64,000 bases of DNA from an uncultured Candidatus Saccharibacteria bacterium. Its GTDB lineage: Bacteria > Patescibacteriota > Minisyncoccia > Phycocordibacterales > UBA9973. A program made the position numbers and the translations under genes. The stretch lies in contig CAZGOI010000002.1 in the NCBI GenBank assembly GCA_964527185.1, forward strand, positions 197,532 through 261,531, given 5' to 3'. Of this stretch, positions 56,856-62,215 are shown in pieces; within the stretch, counting starts at the first letter, position 1, and the number at the start of each line of letters is the position of its first letter. The notes under the pieces were generated by a model. It ran no database searches. It was not told where the DNA came from and was given only the letters and a program-made list of their open reading frames with translations.

Positions 56856-57317
56856 ATGTTAAACAAGAATTTTGCTAAAACCATTGCAGCTGTCGGTATC
56901 ATGAGTGCGCTTGCATTCACAGCTTTTGCCGAAAATAGTTCTGGTACATCGGGTGGTACTACACCAGCCGTTACAAGTAATACAGTTTCTGCAACAGCTA
57001 TCGCTTGCGTCGGTCAGGCCGTTAGTGCTCGCGAGCAAGCTATAGATGCTGCTACAACTACATTTACAAGTGCTGCCAATGCAGCATACAGTGCTCGTGC
57101 TTCTGCATTAGCTGCTGCATATCAAAAAACAACAAAAGCTGATGTGAAGAGTGCGGTTAAAGCTGCTTGGAGTGCATTTAATTCAGCTATGAAGAGCGCT
57201 CGCTCTGCATGGAATAGTGCCCGCAAGAGTGCTTGGAGTGCATTTAGAACTGCAGCAAGAGCTTGCAAAGCTTCTTCAATTGTCGATTCTAGTTCACAAG
57301 AAAATTCTGGTTTGTAA
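56856..57317 (+). CDS. secreted Ala/Ser-rich repeat protein
   Basis: Signal peptide 'MLNKNFAKTIAAVGIMSALAFTAFA'; repeats 'SAFNSAMKSARSAWNSARKSAWSAFRTAARA'. Confidence 0.5.
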   Translation: MLNKNFAKTIAAVGIMSALAFTAFAENSSGTSGGTTPAVTSNTVSATAIACVGQAVSAREQAIDAATTTFTSAANAAYSARASALAAAYQKTTKADVKSAVKAAWSAFNSAMKSARSAWNSARKSAWSAFRTAARACKASSIVDSSSQENSGL

Positions 57318-57528: not shown

Positions 57529-57532
57529 GCAT

Positions 57533-57604
57533 TCCGGAGTAGCTCAGCGGTAGAGCAGTCGCCTGTTAAGCGATTGGTCGCAGGTTCGATCCCTGCCTCC
57601 GGAG
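57533..57604 (+). tRNA. tRNA-Asn (anticodon GTT) with a U1:A72 acceptor pair; CC of CCA encoded
   Basis: Acceptor TCCGGAG/CTCCGGA, D-arm GCTC-AGCGGTA-GAGC, anticodon stem GTCGC/GCGAT with loop CTGTTAA, T-arm GCAGG-TTCGATC-CCTGC, discriminator G then CC. Confidence 0.8.
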
Positions 57605-58205
57605 CCCTATAGGTTGGTTAGAAGTTGCAAGTATCTTGTCAAAGGGAGAACGCATTGAAAACACTAGGTTTTTTCCTTCTAACTGACAGTTCTGAAGTAG
57701 AAAATTAAGAAGTTGCCTTTTTTCAGGCACTTCAGAACTCTTGAAAATCTCAAGAGCTCTTTTTGCTATGTTTAGTATTGTATTTGCAATCAAATAGAAC
57801 TCTTCATCTGCTTCAGAGTGAATACTCATATCTGTGAGAATAGCACTTTGTCTTTCTTTGAACTCTTTCAATTTTCTGTCATACATTTCATCAGTAATTC
57901 GCCTCATACGATATACCATATTCGCCTATAATATTCTCAGCTAGTTTAGTATATTTATTATTTGTTGCAGTTTGAGCTTCTCGTTTTAGTTTCTCATATC
58001 TATCAGAAATTGAGTAAACCATAGGCAGTTTTCTGAAATTAGTTTCTTTATTTTTCTCTTTTTTCAGTAGTTTTATTTTATTAACAAATGGTTTGTTTTT
58101 CAATAATTCACTAAGATAAGAAACCATTTTTGTATTGGCTTTTGATTTTTTGCCGATAAAGTAATCTGGGTATTCAATATCAGATATATCTTTCATATTA
58201 TTCAC
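57566..58205 (-). pseudogene. two overlapping out-of-frame ORFs resembling the C-terminal region of a large serine recombinase (remnant); the 3' end reads antisense through tRNA-Asn
   Basis: ORFs 57891-58205 and 57566-57919 overlap by 29 nt in different frames. The distal C-terminus 'KRQLLNFLLQNCQLEGKNLVFSMRSPF' resembles the LSR C-terminal motif, and the last 13 codons are the reverse complement of the tRNA. No catalytic N-terminal domain is present. Confidence 0.3.
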
Positions 58206-58283
58206 TTTACTTTAGTTTACAATACTTAGCAACATTTTGTTGTATAAATACGCAAATTAAGTTATAATTCAGATACAAAAATT

Positions 58284-58751
58284 ATGGATAAAAATCATCA
58301 ATTATTAGCATATTTAGCTAAAGAACATCCTTCAGCTTCTATCACAGTATTGATGAAGCTCTCTTATTTAGTTGATCTTGTAAGCGTAAAAAAATTAGGT
58401 CAAAAGATTTCTTCTTTTGATTATATTCGTTATAGTTATGGTCCATTTGCTCAAGAGGTTTATGGTATTGTTGAGGACCTAACTCTTAAAAAAATACTCG
58501 CTACAAAAAATGATTATGCAGGTGGTAGTGTTGAATATATAACTTATACATTTACTAATTCTGAAGATTTTTCTTTTGATAAATTGTCAGAAGAAGAGGT
58601 TTCTGTAATAAATGAAATGATGTCTGAACTAAAGGGCTATGGTGCTAAAACTTTAACTGAAATAGCATACAAAACTAAACCTATGGTTGGTCTAGGTGCA
58701 ACGCTTGGTGGGACTGAGGGTCTTTTCAAAAAACTTGATCTAGCTCAATAA
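58284..58751 (+). CDS. Panacea (DUF4065)-domain protein, putative antitoxin-like
   Basis: 'SITVLMKLSYLVDLVSVKKLGQKISSFDYIRYSYGPFAQEVYGIV' matches the Panacea/SocA-GepA-like core (KLxKLxY...W..GPV...Y pattern). Confidence 0.5.
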   Translation: MDKNHQLLAYLAKEHPSASITVLMKLSYLVDLVSVKKLGQKISSFDYIRYSYGPFAQEVYGIVEDLTLKKILATKNDYAGGSVEYITYTFTNSEDFSFDKLSEEEVSVINEMMSELKGYGAKTLTEIAYKTKPMVGLGATLGGTEGLFKKLDLAQ

Positions 58752-58754
58752 TAT

Positions 58755-59261
58755 ATGCAGATGCCTGAAGCGGTTACTTTGATGTATTATCATCCTAGAA
58801 ATACATTTGCTGATAAAACTTCAGAAGAAGAAAGAACGGGTGTAATCAAAAAGAAATATAAGTTGTTATTCAAACAGCATAAAGAATTAGGTCTTTATGT
58901 GTTTTTTGTTTTGACTAGTAGTCCTTCTGCTTGTGTGAAGGAAAGAATGTTTTCTATAAATAAAACAGATTGGGAAGAAAGATTAGGAAACAGCTTAGAT
59001 GCTGATTGCTCATACACTGATATTCAAAGCCATTCAGTAGTTCACGATAAAAGCGAGGTTTTAGAAAAAGCCAGTAATCCTAAAATAGGTTTTTCTTATG
59101 TGGCTAAACTATATCAATCAAAGTTCAATGAATTATCCACTGCAATAGAAAACTATCTTTCTGCTACAACAGCAAAGACGGATATTGAAAAAAGAGATTT
59201 CTTAAAAAGTATTGTTCTTGAAGATAAAGCTACAGATTTTATCAATAAGTTTAAGGTTTAG
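58755..59261 (+). CDS. hypothetical protein, candidate toxin partner of the Panacea-domain gene
   Basis: 168 aa; starts 4 nt after the Panacea ORF stop; no recognisable motif. Confidence 0.35.
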   Translation: MQMPEAVTLMYYHPRNTFADKTSEEERTGVIKKKYKLLFKQHKELGLYVFFVLTSSPSACVKERMFSINKTDWEERLGNSLDADCSYTDIQSHSVVHDKSEVLEKASNPKIGFSYVAKLYQSKFNELSTAIENYLSATTAKTDIEKRDFLKSIVLEDKATDFINKFKV

Positions 59262-59340
59262 CTTCCAGTTTGCTGTATCTTGGAAAGAAGGTCATTATTT
59301 GGCTAAAACCTAATTCTTTTTGTATTTCTTTCCAGTTTAT

Positions 59341-59401
59341 AGTTCTGAACTCGGACAATACAGGGAGCCAACTTGACTTTTATATATTTTTATGCTACTA
59401 T
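59341..59401 (+). promoter_or_regulatory. operator-like inverted repeat plus sigma-70-type promoter (module copy 1)
   Basis: IR AGTTC-T-GAACT (59341-59351); -35 TTGACT (59373-59378), 17-nt spacer, -10 TACTAT (59396-59401). Confidence 0.45.
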
Positions 59402-59517: not shown

Positions 59518-59976
59518 ATGAAAAAAATTCTTGATGAAGAAATCGTAATAAGCAATATCCAATACATCTATCCTGTATTACCTACAGGAGACGAATTAAG
59601 GATTGCACTAGGTGCACTATCTCTGACCAATCAAAAATCGAACGTCAATGATGATTGCCATCCAATGATAGTTGGGTGGAACGAAAACTCCGCAGTCGAT
59701 TTTGCTGACTTTCAATGGTGGATTAAGTGCCTCATTGAAGAAAGCCATTTTATTATTGGGAAGAAGATTATCACTTTTGCAGAAAAATTAGATCTGTACC
59801 CTGAGGAAGCTTGTGGAGAACCTTCTGTCACTTTAAAATTCAAAGACGGTACAATGTTCAGAATTACACAAAGAGACATCAGCAAGCCGATTGAAGTTTG
59901 CGTACGAGGCGATGGCCCAAATTTCCTGAAGATGAAAATTAAGGAATACGGGTACACTCCTATTCCTTTCGATTAA
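59518..59976 (+). CDS. hypothetical protein (152 aa), cassette 1
   Basis: ORF preceded by the module promoter and leader, followed by a terminator hairpin. Confidence 0.4.
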   Translation: MKKILDEEIVISNIQYIYPVLPTGDELRIALGALSLTNQKSNVNDDCHPMIVGWNENSAVDFADFQWWIKCLIEESHFIIGKKIITFAEKLDLYPEEACGEPSVTLKFKDGTMFRITQRDISKPIEVCVRGDGPNFLKMKIKEYGYTPIPFD

Positions 59977-60001: not shown

Positions 60002-60031
60002 AAGTTCCTTGCCAAAACAAGGAACTTTTTA
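60002..60031 (+). terminator. rho-independent terminator after cassette 1
   Basis: AAGTTCCTTG-CCAAAA-CAAGGAACTT followed by TTTTT. Confidence 0.65.
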
Positions 60032-60072: not shown

Positions 60073-60600
60073 ATGGAATATTTGGATATCTGTGATGAAA
60101 AAGGAAATTTGACAGGAATCAAAGCTTTGAAAAAAGAAGCTCATGAGAAAGGCCTCTGGCATAGATCAGTTCATATCTGGATTTTAAACTCAAAAAATGA
60201 ATTATTAGTGCAAAAAAGATCTCCGTTAATGGATAACCATCCTAATGAGTGGGATATTTCAGCTGCAGGGCATGTATCAGCTGGAGAAGATAACATAACT
60301 TCTGCCTTACGAGAAACCGAAGAAGAACTTGGTTTAAAACTTTCTCCTGGAAATTTTACTCTCATTGGGACTATTCAACAAAGGTCTGCGCGTGAAGGAT
60401 ATATAAATAATGAAGTAAACCCTATCTATGTTGTTAAAATGGATTTAGATCTAAGTAATATAAAAAAGCAGGTAGAAGAAGTTTCAGAAGTAAAATTTAT
60501 TCCTTATCTTGAATTGAAAAAACTTATTGATAATAAAGACCCTTATTTTGTTAAACACCCTAGTGAGTACGAACTTCTTTTCAGTTATTTATCACAATAA
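60073..60600 (+). CDS. NUDIX hydrolase
   Basis: Nudix box 'GHVSAGEDNITSALRETEEELGL' (G-x5-E-x7-REUxEExGU). Confidence 0.8.
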   Translation: MEYLDICDEKGNLTGIKALKKEAHEKGLWHRSVHIWILNSKNELLVQKRSPLMDNHPNEWDISAAGHVSAGEDNITSALRETEEELGLKLSPGNFTLIGTIQQRSAREGYINNEVNPIYVVKMDLDLSNIKKQVEEVSEVKFIPYLELKKLIDNKDPYFVKHPSEYELLFSYLSQ

Positions 60601-60633: not shown

Positions 60634-60670
60634 TAAACAGAAACGGCACCTTTTGGTGCCTTTTCTGTTT
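60634..60670 (+). terminator. rho-independent terminator after the NUDIX gene
   Basis: AAACAGAAACGGCACC-TTTT-GGTGCCTTTTCTGTTT. Confidence 0.75.
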
Positions 60671-60770: not shown

Positions 60771-60792
60771 GAGATTCCCTGCCTCCGGAGCC
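60771..60792 (+). repeat. direct repeat of the tRNA-Asn 3' end (att-like)
   Basis: CCCTGCCTCCGGAGCC (60777-60792) is identical to tRNA-Asn 57591-57606; the upstream GAGATTC resembles the T-loop. Confidence 0.6.
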
Positions 60793-60794
60793 AG

Positions 60795-60823
60795 TTGACA
60801 AATATATTAAATTATTCTATACT
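60795..60823 (+). promoter_or_regulatory. sigma-70-type promoter (module copy 2)
   Basis: -35 TTGACA (60795-60800), 17-nt spacer, -10 TATACT (60818-60823), immediately after the tRNA-like repeat. Confidence 0.45.
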
Positions 60824-60835
60824 AGAAACAGTATC

Positions 60836-60922
60836 GTAGTTCTTTGATATTTTTTGGTTATTTAGTTGTATTTGGTGGATTATCCTTGCTTCTTTTTAGG
60901 AGGTTAAGATAATTCACTAAAT
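60836..60922 (+). repeat. conserved 87-nt leader, copy A (near-identical to 61450-61536)
   Basis: GTAGTTCTTTGATATTTTTTGGTTATTTAGTTGTATTTGGTGGATTATCCTTGCTTCTTTTTAGGAGGTTAAGATAATTCACTAAAT, with 1 substitution relative to copy B. Confidence 0.7.
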
Positions 60923-60947
60923 AATTCACAATTAAATACCAAAAAAA

Positions 60948-61229
60948 ATGGATGCAAATCAATTTCCCAACGACAACGATTTAGTTAATCCTGAAGACCC
61001 TTACTCACCAACCGAAAAAGAGGTTCGTGAATATATGGAAATGGGATATAGTCGTTCAGGTGCAATATCTTCACTCACCACAACCAAAAAAAATCGTGAA
61101 GAAGAATACGACCCTTTTCAGGAAGGTGATGCTGAGGAAATGGATGCAATTCGTAACCCCCATGTATCAATGGAGGGTATGATGTTAAAAGTTAATCAGC
61201 ACTATGGACCACCTTCAAATGAGGACTAA
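60948..61229 (+). CDS. hypothetical acidic protein (93 aa) with a UBA-like motif, cassette 2
   Basis: 'EVREYMEMGYSRSGAISSL' resembles the UBA helix-1/2 consensus (..L.eMGF.r..a..AL); Asp/Glu-rich. Confidence 0.35.
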   Translation: MDANQFPNDNDLVNPEDPYSPTEKEVREYMEMGYSRSGAISSLTTTKKNREEEYDPFQEGDAEEMDAIRNPHVSMEGMMLKVNQHYGPPSNED

Positions 61230-61296: not shown

Positions 61297-61417
61297 GAGT
61301 TCTGAAGTGTTCATCATTTGAAACATCTCAAAAATATTACTAAACTCAATATCTCTTTTAATTTGAACCCAGTTAAGAGTTCTGAACTCATCCACTAGTG
61401 GGAGCAAATACTTGACT
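61297..61417 (+). repeat. inter-cassette repeat (about 120 nt) carrying the IR operator and the -35 (copy 1)
   Basis: Starts TGAGTTCTGAAG, contains CATCTCAAAAATATTACTAAACTCAATATCTCTTTTAATTTGAACCCAGTTAAGAGTTCTGAACTCATCCACTAGTGGGAGCAAATACTTGACT. It is closely similar to 62101-62215. Confidence 0.6.
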
Positions 61418-61449: not shown

Positions 61450-61536
61450 GTAGTTCTTTGATATTTTTTGGTTATTTAGTTGTATTTGGTGGATTATCCT
61501 TGCTTCTTTTTTGGAGGTTAAGATAATTCACTAAAT
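61450..61536 (+). repeat. conserved 87-nt leader, copy B
   Basis: Near-identical to 60836-60922. Confidence 0.7.
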
Positions 61537-61559
61537 ATAAACAATTAAATAATCAAAAG

Positions 61560-62039
61560 ATGAACATAAGTAACAGAACAAAGAAGTATGCCGAGATGTT
61601 GAACTATCAAGGTCATAGGCATCCAGTAATTAAGGCATTGATAGTTGTTTTTGAAATACTTGATGATTACACAAGTAGAGTAAAAGCAGGAGAAGACGGA
61701 GACCGTTTTCTTTCAATGTTGGGAGGGCTGGAAAAAGCAGATAGGCAGAGTTTGGTCAAAAAAAGCAATCGTGCTTTCTGGGGACAGGGACATTTCACCA
61801 GCGAAAATACGTCAGAATTATTTGCTCTCATCGGAGTAACTGATGAAAAAGCAAAAGTTTTTGAAGGATATGATTTCATATGGGAAATATTTAGCTCAAA
61901 AGGAAATACTCCCGAAGAAATATTTTCAAATATGAGAACGGCTATGTCACCTCCTGCCAGATTCTTGTTGGAACAAACCTATGATTCCTTCAAGAATGAA
62001 ATGATTACAATGTATTATCGTTACTTCCAAGTAAGGTAA
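61560..62039 (+). CDS. hypothetical protein (159 aa), cassette 3
   Basis: ORF with the module promoter and leader upstream and a strong terminator downstream. Confidence 0.4.
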   Translation: MNISNRTKKYAEMLNYQGHRHPVIKALIVVFEILDDYTSRVKAGEDGDRFLSMLGGLEKADRQSLVKKSNRAFWGQGHFTSENTSELFALIGVTDEKAKVFEGYDFIWEIFSSKGNTPEEIFSNMRTAMSPPARFLLEQTYDSFKNEMITMYYRYFQVR

Positions 62040-62100: not shown

Positions 62101-62215
62101 TGAGTTCTGAAACCCTGCTACAGGAAATGTCTCAAAAATCTTAGAAAACTCAATATCTCTTTTAATTTTAACCCAATTAAGAGTTCTGAACTTGTCCACT
62201 AGGGGGAGCATTTTT
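62101..62215 (+). repeat. inter-cassette repeat, copy 2 (degenerate, no intact promoter)
   Basis: TGAGTTCTGAAACC...CTCAATATCTCTTTTAATTTTAACCCAATTAAGAGTTCTGAACTTGTCCACTAGGGGGAGCA. Confidence 0.55.

Follow-up and report, generated by a model that had tools for sequence, protein, structure and literature searches.

At issue here are two adjacent genes in a 64,000-nucleotide stretch of DNA (hereafter the window) from contig CAZGOI010000002.1 of an uncultured Candidatus Saccharibacteria bacterium. The pair – panA and panT, open reading frames (ORFs) 1 and 2 of the locus – probably constitutes a type II toxin–antitoxin (TA) module of the PanAT class, a reading to which we give a probability of about 0.7 and in which PanT would be a toxic RNase and PanA the protein that neutralises it. 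The features on which the argument turns are the following.

58284..58751, + strand: panA (ORF1), candidate standalone Panacea-domain antitoxin, 155 aa, acidic (isoelectric point, pI, 5.4), with a PF13274 match
58755..59261, + strand: panT (ORF2), 168 aa, putative endoribonuclease toxin of the MazF/PemK/CcdB fold with a C-terminal helical extension
58263..58268, + strand: candidate promoter −10 element, a perfect TATAAT 15 nt 5′ of the panA ATG, which would leave a very short leader

The panA–panT pair and its conservation

A preliminary description of this DNA had assigned ORF1 to the Panacea (DUF4065) proteins, and a search with the Pfam profile PF13274 (SocA_Panacea) bears this out: PanA scores 62.1 bits (E = 1.1e-16) against a cut-off of 25.7 bits, and the match extends over positions 1–110 of the 113 in the profile. 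The protein stands alone, with no additional N-terminal domain (HTH, PAD1 or ZBD), and its AlphaFold2 model (pLDDT 91.2, pTM 0.88) presents the conserved tail at residues 137–155 as an ordered extended segment, with no floppy tail. Standalone PanAs have been shown to neutralise by direct binding (Ernits 2023). Those PanA proteins that lie beside members of the PanT family form a subfamily of their own, 39–58% identical and marked by the conserved C-terminal motif AYKTKPMxxLGATLGG. PanA also gives weak matches to the PADLOC candidate PDC-M19A (E = 7e-7), to the C-terminal region of the DarG antitoxin (E = 2.8e-4 in PADLOC and 0.02 in NCBIfam) and to part of a model for specificity subunits of type I restriction–modification systems, which hints at Panacea-like modules embedded in other defence proteins.

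The two genes are tightly coupled, much as the preliminary description had it: the panA stop codon TAA ends at 58751 and is followed by TAT and then, 3 nt after the stop, by the panT ATG at 58755. Some gene callers use an alternative ATG at 58761, which yields a 166-aa form, and it is from this start that PanT residues are numbered below; the start at 58755 is nonetheless favoured by the N-terminal pattern of the family, M-x-[LM]-P, and the NCBI record likewise gives 168 aa. The window panT lacks a Shine–Dalgarno sequence, and of 36 related pairs just five have a motif of that kind ahead of panT; together with the 3-nt gap after the panA stop, this suggests that panT is probably translated by termination–reinitiation. 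Upstream of panA the TATAAT box may serve as promoter: −10-like boxes lie 6–34 nt 5′ of panA in most related loci, and although the window box is absent from the list produced by our consensus scan, this is because its −35 element is weak (3/6 matches). We note that panA and panT share a reading frame (58284–59258) and are parted only by TAA-TAT, such that read-through of one stop codon would fuse both. Such a fusion was rejected because spacing and frame differ among the pairs of the family; the shared frame is probably coincidental.

That the two genes belong together is indicated by their joint distribution. With the better conserved PanA subfamily as bait we recovered 67 metagenomic loci, 66 of them with a PanA match. 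A PanT-family gene lies immediately downstream of PanA on the same strand in 58 of the 66 and, once only loci with room for it are counted, in 58 of 60: in six of the eight loci lacking PanT the sequence ends within 180 nt of the PanA stop, which leaves L140 and L148, both orphan antitoxins, as the only loci with room but without PanT. Searches from the toxin side gave the same picture, a Panacea gene standing directly upstream of PanT in all five independent contexts, at PanT identities of 27–87%. Across 37 unique full-length pairs the spacing runs from −41 to +7 nt with a median of +2. There is no third conserved gene, for no cluster of flanking ORFs recurs in more than eight of about 72 loci; the commonest neighbours (IS1-like/IS1595 transposases, a Rep-like protein, serine recombinases and a methyltransferase) occur in at most eight loci each and at variable positions. 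Relatives of the PanA subfamily were not found in viral contigs. From locus to locus, the identity of PanA rises and falls with that of PanT (r = 0.94, a figure driven in part by one close pair), and the charges of the partners are opposed in 34 of 38 pairs, PanT being basic (median pI 9.2) and PanA acidic (median 5.9).

Both genes are under strong purifying selection. Between the window and L001, a contig reached through a PanT homologue 87% identical to that of the window, the ratio of non-synonymous to synonymous substitution (dN/dS) is 0.065 for PanA and 0.093 for PanT, with dS at about 0.7 (0.76 for panT), and the panT genes of L001 and of a further close relative, L002, are separated by 19 synonymous differences and not one non-synonymous difference. 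The manner in which loci decay is also informative. Both genes are intact in 44 metagenomic loci; PanA is kept with PanT truncated or absent in four (L124, L125, L140 and L148), the reverse is seen once (L154, to which we return), and in L156 both genes are broken. The asymmetry of four to one, small as these numbers are, is in the direction expected were PanT the toxin, and the inverted order entertained in the preliminary description, with ORF2 as antitoxin, found no support. L140 holds, in addition, a second and unrelated Panacea-type gene (142 aa) that adjoins its orphan PanA; with a 73-aa ORF downstream, at an overlap of 2 nt, it spans 591–1242 on the minus strand and may form a further PanAT pair, one in which the partner is small.

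Kurata 2022 defined PanAT systems in silico by a PF13274 match above threshold, two genes on the same strand and no more than 100 nt apart, and a conserved operon of at most three genes. The window pair, at 62.1 bits, 3 nt and with no longer conserved operon, falls within this definition, and its pairing is kept in a large number of diverged loci. The claim of a candidate novel PanAT pair stands as regards the locus, which by these in-silico criteria is a conserved PanAT locus, and gives way as regards novelty: Panacea genes paired with MazF-like toxins are already in print, one such pair having been validated.

The PanT family and its predicted fold

No significant match to PanT was found in Pfam, PADLOC, PHROGs or NCBIfam. 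An early impression that it was an orphan, based on a word-indexed search (two close homologues) and a profile search (six), was overturned by index-free HMMER searching of 1.84 billion representatives, which returned 145 proteins at E ≤ 1e-3, of which 53 reach E ≤ 1e-10; these are representatives and so stand for at least 145 clusters at 50% identity. Nearly all are 160–177 aa long and matched end to end. A search of genome contigs with the single window PanT found no locus, and P0145, a 707-aa protein that showed seven weak repeat matches and comes from an unrelated context, was set aside as a spurious hit. Members named in public records are all 'hypothetical protein' of Ca. Parcubacteria or unclassified metagenome-assembled genomes (MAGs); among 16 checked, two are in NCBI nr, as MAG-derived hypothetical proteins, and none is in UniRef.

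An alignment of 78 members (A1) brings out the motifs Y-x-D-x-K-S-x-E, T-G-x-x-K-x-K-Y-K-L-A-G, F-F-V-L-T and D-W-E-x-R, followed by N-G-F-x-x-V-A-x-L and a C-terminal L-x-K-L-G-L. In it K32 is invariant, and D18, S21, E23, K34, F48, K103 and F111 are conserved in at least 90% of members. The idea of a membrane toxin was rejected: the maximum Kyte–Doolittle value of any 19-residue segment is 1.06, with nothing resembling a transmembrane segment.

What sequence comparison does not recognise, structure prediction does. The AlphaFold2 model of PanT built from A1 (pLDDT 90.7, pTM 0.85) has seven strands and helices in the order of MazF – strands 14–22, 29–40, 45–52, 63–67, 83–87 and 91–94, helix 97–105, strand 112–117 and helix 119–134 – and then two extra helices at 142–152 and 157–164. 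When this model was compared to the Protein Data Bank (PDB) with Foldseek, the best 50 matches were all MazF, Kid, MoxT or YdcE, with a top E-value of 1.3e-5 at probability 1.0 and, for the best match, a TM-score of about 0.70 normalised to the target; among the viral models of BFVD, phage PemK/MazF toxins ranked first. By its predicted structure, then, PanT is a protein of the MazF/PemK/CcdB SH3-like β-barrel fold, and its kinship with MazF is established only at the level of fold, since sequence methods find no link (reciprocal HMM searches between PanT and MazF, with filters off, gave E > 0.1). The statement that ORF2 is unrecognisable therefore holds for its sequence and fails for its structure. 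Nor is ORF2 an undescribed kind of toxin, as had been suggested, since the predicted fold is a known one; and the check proposed for it, whether the fold would match a housekeeping protein, came out in favour of a toxin family (MazF/Kid).

The model also offers candidates for an active site. K30, K32 and K34 alternate along strand β2 and should accordingly face one side, T52 closes β3, and D18, S21 and E23 sit at the end of β1, where they recall the G-S-E-Q loop of MazF. MazF toxins have their catalytic Arg where β2 starts and a Thr or Ser where β3 ends; in Bacillus MazF, Arg25 acts as general acid/base and Thr48 stabilises the transition state; in M. tuberculosis MazF4 a lysine replaces the catalytic arginine (PMC7354611), and the active site of ToxN comprises Tyr29, Lys33, Thr52, Ser53 and Lys55 (PMC5086642). 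We propose that PanT may be a toxin that cleaves RNA by means of an active site built on lysine.

How this compares to described systems determines what is new. Kurata 2022 (PNAS) paired 88 toxin clusters with Panacea and found the antitoxin-first order to be the commoner; the MazF/PemK-like clusters in its Dataset S1 are T5, T6 and T29 (HHpred matches to EndoA/PemK/MazF at about 99.5%), and T6 is the validated PanA–PanT pair of Pseudomonas moraviensis. In NetFlax, MazF/PemK is among the commonest toxin folds (Ernits 2023). The window pair resembles T5, T6 and T29 in having a standalone Panacea gene first, a toxin of MazF/PemK/CcdB fold within a few nucleotides or overlapping, and the form of a two-gene module on mobile DNA. 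It differs in that the PanT family gives no profile signal to MazF (PF02452), is some 50 residues longer owing to its C-terminal helices, and, by topology, carries lysine at the place of the catalytic arginine of MazF; its hosts, moreover, are Patescibacteria and environmental MAGs, which the RefSeq set behind that study does not contain. T14 from Saccharibacteria, the only cluster from the candidate phyla radiation (CPR) that we found in the published table, was rejected as an equivalent of the PanT family, being HigB-2/RelE-like with an HTH-PanA. Given that Panacea genes with MazF-like toxins are published (Kurata 2022), the novelty is that of a new family in a known class: a family that profiles fail to detect, about 50 residues longer than MazF, with a lysine-based conserved set and a dedicated PanA subfamily. 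It is set apart from T5, T6, T29 and T14 by their descriptions, and may equal an un-annotated cluster among T1–T88.

From MazEF, Kis–Kid and PemIK the pair departs in its antitoxin, which is a Panacea protein and not of the AbrB/MazE or Kis type, in the length of its toxin (166–168 aa, family range 160–177, against roughly 105–120 aa, with no PF02452 match) and in having D-x-K-S-x-E...K-x-K-Y-K-L in place of the GSEQ...R-P motif. PanT shares the ToxN/CptN-type fold with the type III toxins ToxN, AbiQ and CptN, but its structural similarity to them is lower than to MazF; in addition, it has no Pfam ToxN match, and a protein antitoxin lies upstream. An RNA antitoxin of type III was looked for and rejected: no tandem array adjoins panT, and Rfam finds only the tRNA. 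As for CcdAB, CcdA is unrelated to Panacea, and PanT is less similar to CcdB than to the RNase members of the fold. CcdB targets gyrase. The SocAB system of Caulobacter, namesake of PF13274, has an antitoxin with the same Panacea/DUF4065 domain. SocB inhibits the β sliding clamp, and SocA does not act by stoichiometric inhibition but serves as an adaptor for ClpXP. SocB (cluster T10 of Kurata) is, however, an unrelated toxin, and nothing here points to the SocAB mechanism.

The carrier element and its surroundings

The pair lies in a small island beside a tRNA gene, delimited by the features below.

57532..57607, + strand: tRNA-Asn(GTT), the integration target, whose 3′ end is the left att repeat (ARAGORN; Rfam RF00005, 70.8 bits)
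57566..57919, − strand: C-terminal remnant of a serine recombinase, a 117-aa ORF lacking the catalytic domain
57590..57606, + strand: left att-like repeat (attL-like), 17 nt at the tRNA-Asn end, an exact repeat, TCCCTGCCTCCGGAGCC
57891..58205, − strand: ORF without family match, 104 aa, divergent from panA, standing where L001 has about 7.8 kb
60776..60792, + strand: right att-like repeat (attR-like), the exact 17-nt copy, which bounds an island of about 3.2 kb

These are the recombinase remnant, tRNA-Asn and att-like repeat that the preliminary description had named as the context of the pair, and all three are in place. The GC content of the island is 28–36%, against 41–50% upstream. What the element once was can be read from L001, its intact form, which encodes a complete large serine recombinase of 494 aa (Resolvase/Recombinase/Zn_ribbon_recom), a specificity subunit of type I-like character, a methyltransferase of 703 aa, an HTH_17 protein, a Phage_CRI-like protein of 378 aa, proteins of 59 and 531 aa, and then the Panacea gene and the PanT homologue. 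Window positions 57577–57901 are 94.8% identical in DNA to positions 1–325 of L001, the 3′ end of the recombinase gene; homology resumes exactly at 58204, and from there to 59368 the window is 86% identical to the PanA/PanT end of L001. Between these segments about 7.8 kb of L001 is replaced by about 300 bp. With the recombinase reduced to a remnant and this much of L001 gone, the window element is, judged from its sequence, a decayed and immobilised copy integrated at tRNA-Asn that has retained the pair. A related element (L006–L008) carries a serine recombinase, an HTH_17 protein, a 374-aa protein, a DNA methylase and an HNH protein along with the same pair, at 43% PanT identity. The 104-aa ORF has no match in Pfam, PADLOC, PHROGs or NCBIfam and no protein relative in the related loci.

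The divergence from L001 is a mosaic: dS is 0.22 in the recombinase remnant against about 0.7 in panA and panT, a pattern suggesting that lineages of the element have recombined. At its tRNA-derived end, too, L001 departs from the tRNA-Asn 3′ end of the window (CCCTACCCACGGAGCC versus CCCTGCCTCCGGAGCC).

Beyond the pair the island carries a 152-aa orphan ORF (59518–59976) and a NUDIX hydrolase (60073–60600; PF00293, 62 bits), and behind each of them lies a terminator-like hairpin (60002–60027 and 60645–60660, respectively); no relatives of either were found in other PanAT loci. The low-GC region runs on to about 62900 and resembles a tandem array of cassettes, in which Rfam found nothing credible. 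A segment of about 87 nt occurs three times (59283–59369, 61320–61406 and 62124–62210; 63–89% identity); its minus strand reads a conserved peptide-like LP[LV][LV][DS][EK]FRT[IL]NW..I[QK][KR][DE].. without a long ORF, and both L001 and L002 preserve the copy at 59283–59369 on the 3′ side of their panT. An 88-nt leader is present twice at 99% identity (60836–60923 and 61450–61537), each time about 25 nt 5′ of a small orphan ORF (93 aa at 60948 and 159 aa at 61560), and ahead of the 152-aa ORF at 59518 stands a version with 71% similarity. The best σ70-like promoter match of the region, TTGACA-17-TATACT (11/12) at 60795–60823, begins 3 nt past the right att repeat and is directed towards the cassettes that follow.

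On the other side, just 5′ of tRNA-Asn, 56856–57317 encodes a protein of 153 aa, rich in Ala and Ser, whose N-terminus resembles a signal peptide and which contains internal repeats (SAWNSARKSAWSAF); the protein has no family match, and its gene has a 35-nt direct repeat at 57146 and 57212. The histidyl-tRNA synthetase (HisRS) neighbouring the island reaches 86% identity to proteins from MAGs of Patescibacteria that carry the label Paceibacterota, Ca. Nomurabacteria or Parcubacteria.

Mode of action, alternatives and significance

The sequence of events we envisage for the module is as follows. The two genes would be transcribed together from the promoter just 5′ of panA, and ribosomes terminating on panA would probably re-initiate at panT, an arrangement that would keep the antitoxin at least as abundant as the toxin. 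Left free, the PanT β-barrel would most likely cut single-stranded RNA and so bring translation and growth to a stop, the probable active site being the lysine ladder of β2 (K30, the invariant K32 and K34) together with T52 at the end of β3. PanA, as a standalone acidic Panacea protein, would probably neutralise PanT by direct binding. The module would travel as cargo of small Patescibacteria serine-recombinase integrative elements and of IS-rich (insertion sequence-rich) regions, with a role probably in addiction and stabilisation and possibly in abortive-infection defence. Either role, if true, would account for the pair being intact though the element has lost its recombinase, replication and restriction genes.

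Several observations weigh against this account. PF02452 (MazF/PemK) matches none of the 78 aligned PanT members, to which Pfam as a whole gave nothing but scattered noise; the PanT profile finds nothing among PDB sequences at E ≤ 10; and hhalign gives a probability of 0.2–0.3% whether PanT is set against four canonical MazF/Kid sequences or against 124 MazF sequences, the latter a narrow profile since the homologue search behind it gave almost only Bacillaceae EndoA orthologues. The equivalence of K32 (β2) and T52 (β3 end) to the Arg and Thr of MazF is one of secondary-structure topology, T52 is kept in just 82% of the family and gives way to Asn in L001 and L002, both close relatives, and the window PanT has Ile in place of Asn109, which 91% of the family keep. 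The terminator scan found no intrinsic terminator directly 3′ of panT. In L154 it is PanA that is truncated, at its N-terminus, beside an intact PanT. Finally, the fold itself is shared by CcdB, a gyrase poison with no RNase role.

This last point opens onto a variant in which the pair is a genuine PanAT and PanT is CcdB-like, poisoning DNA gyrase or another protein target and cleaving no RNA; we regard it as improbable. Somewhat less remote, though still unlikely, is the reading that the pair is no classical addiction module: it would be a two-gene sensor–effector system for phage defence by abortive infection, with Panacea sensing an infection cue and releasing or activating a MazF-fold effector, or else PanT would bind RNA or act in regulation and not be toxic at all. 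Panacea has been proposed to act as a sensor (Ernits 2023), the pair travels with restriction–modification genes in L001 and L006, PanA has its weak match to PDC-M19A (E = 7e-7), and type III toxins of the same fold are abortive-infection effectors (PMC5086642). Yet PanT matches no PADLOC model, no relative was found in viral contigs, and PanA is standalone, the class shown to neutralise directly (Ernits 2023); the mechanism, moreover, overlaps that of the TA module and departs from it mainly in biological role.

That PanT might be an ORF in decay, or no genuine ORF at all, within a degenerate island and next to PanA by accident, is an idea that the state of the locus invites: the surrounding element is clearly decayed, with a deletion of about 7.8 kb relative to L001 and a mere remnant of the recombinase, and word-indexed searching gave only two close homologues. 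It is refuted by the dN/dS of panT (0.093 at a dS of 0.76), by the 145 representatives and by the 58 of 60 paired loci; the fold, too, is confidently predicted, and the window PanT retains all near-invariant residues of the family except N109. We give it next to no weight.

The type II PanAT reading also admits a more far-reaching form, namely that the PanT family is more than a diverged MazF and makes up a separate deep branch of the MazF/CcdB/ToxN superfamily, combining a MazF-like core and ToxN-like size with a Lys/Tyr/Thr active site and a conserved C-terminal helical module. We hold this to be doubtful. If true, the C-terminal module, which ends in L-x-K-L-G-L, could confer a new substrate, a new regulatory handle or the docking site for Panacea, and the family, restricted for the most part to Patescibacteria, would be related to the type III toxins but neutralised by a protein where those are neutralised by RNA; it could serve abortive infection or element stabilisation in hosts mostly without CRISPR.

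The finding leaves the current picture of TA biology unchanged. It adds to the Panacea network a sizeable unannotated toxin family – at least 145 clusters at 50% identity – and illustrates that structure prediction can place toxins which sequence profiles fail to see. Besides the pair of the window itself there are 37 unique natural PanA–PanT pairs (alignment A4 comprises 34 fused sequences), which can be used for co-evolution analysis and for modelling the complex in which a standalone Panacea protein would block a MazF-fold toxin. It also documents a TA module in Patescibacteria/CPR, whose tiny genomes, from uncultured organisms, are poorly covered by RefSeq-based TA surveys; and in the window the pair has outlived the element that carried it, which is the behaviour expected of an addictive module.

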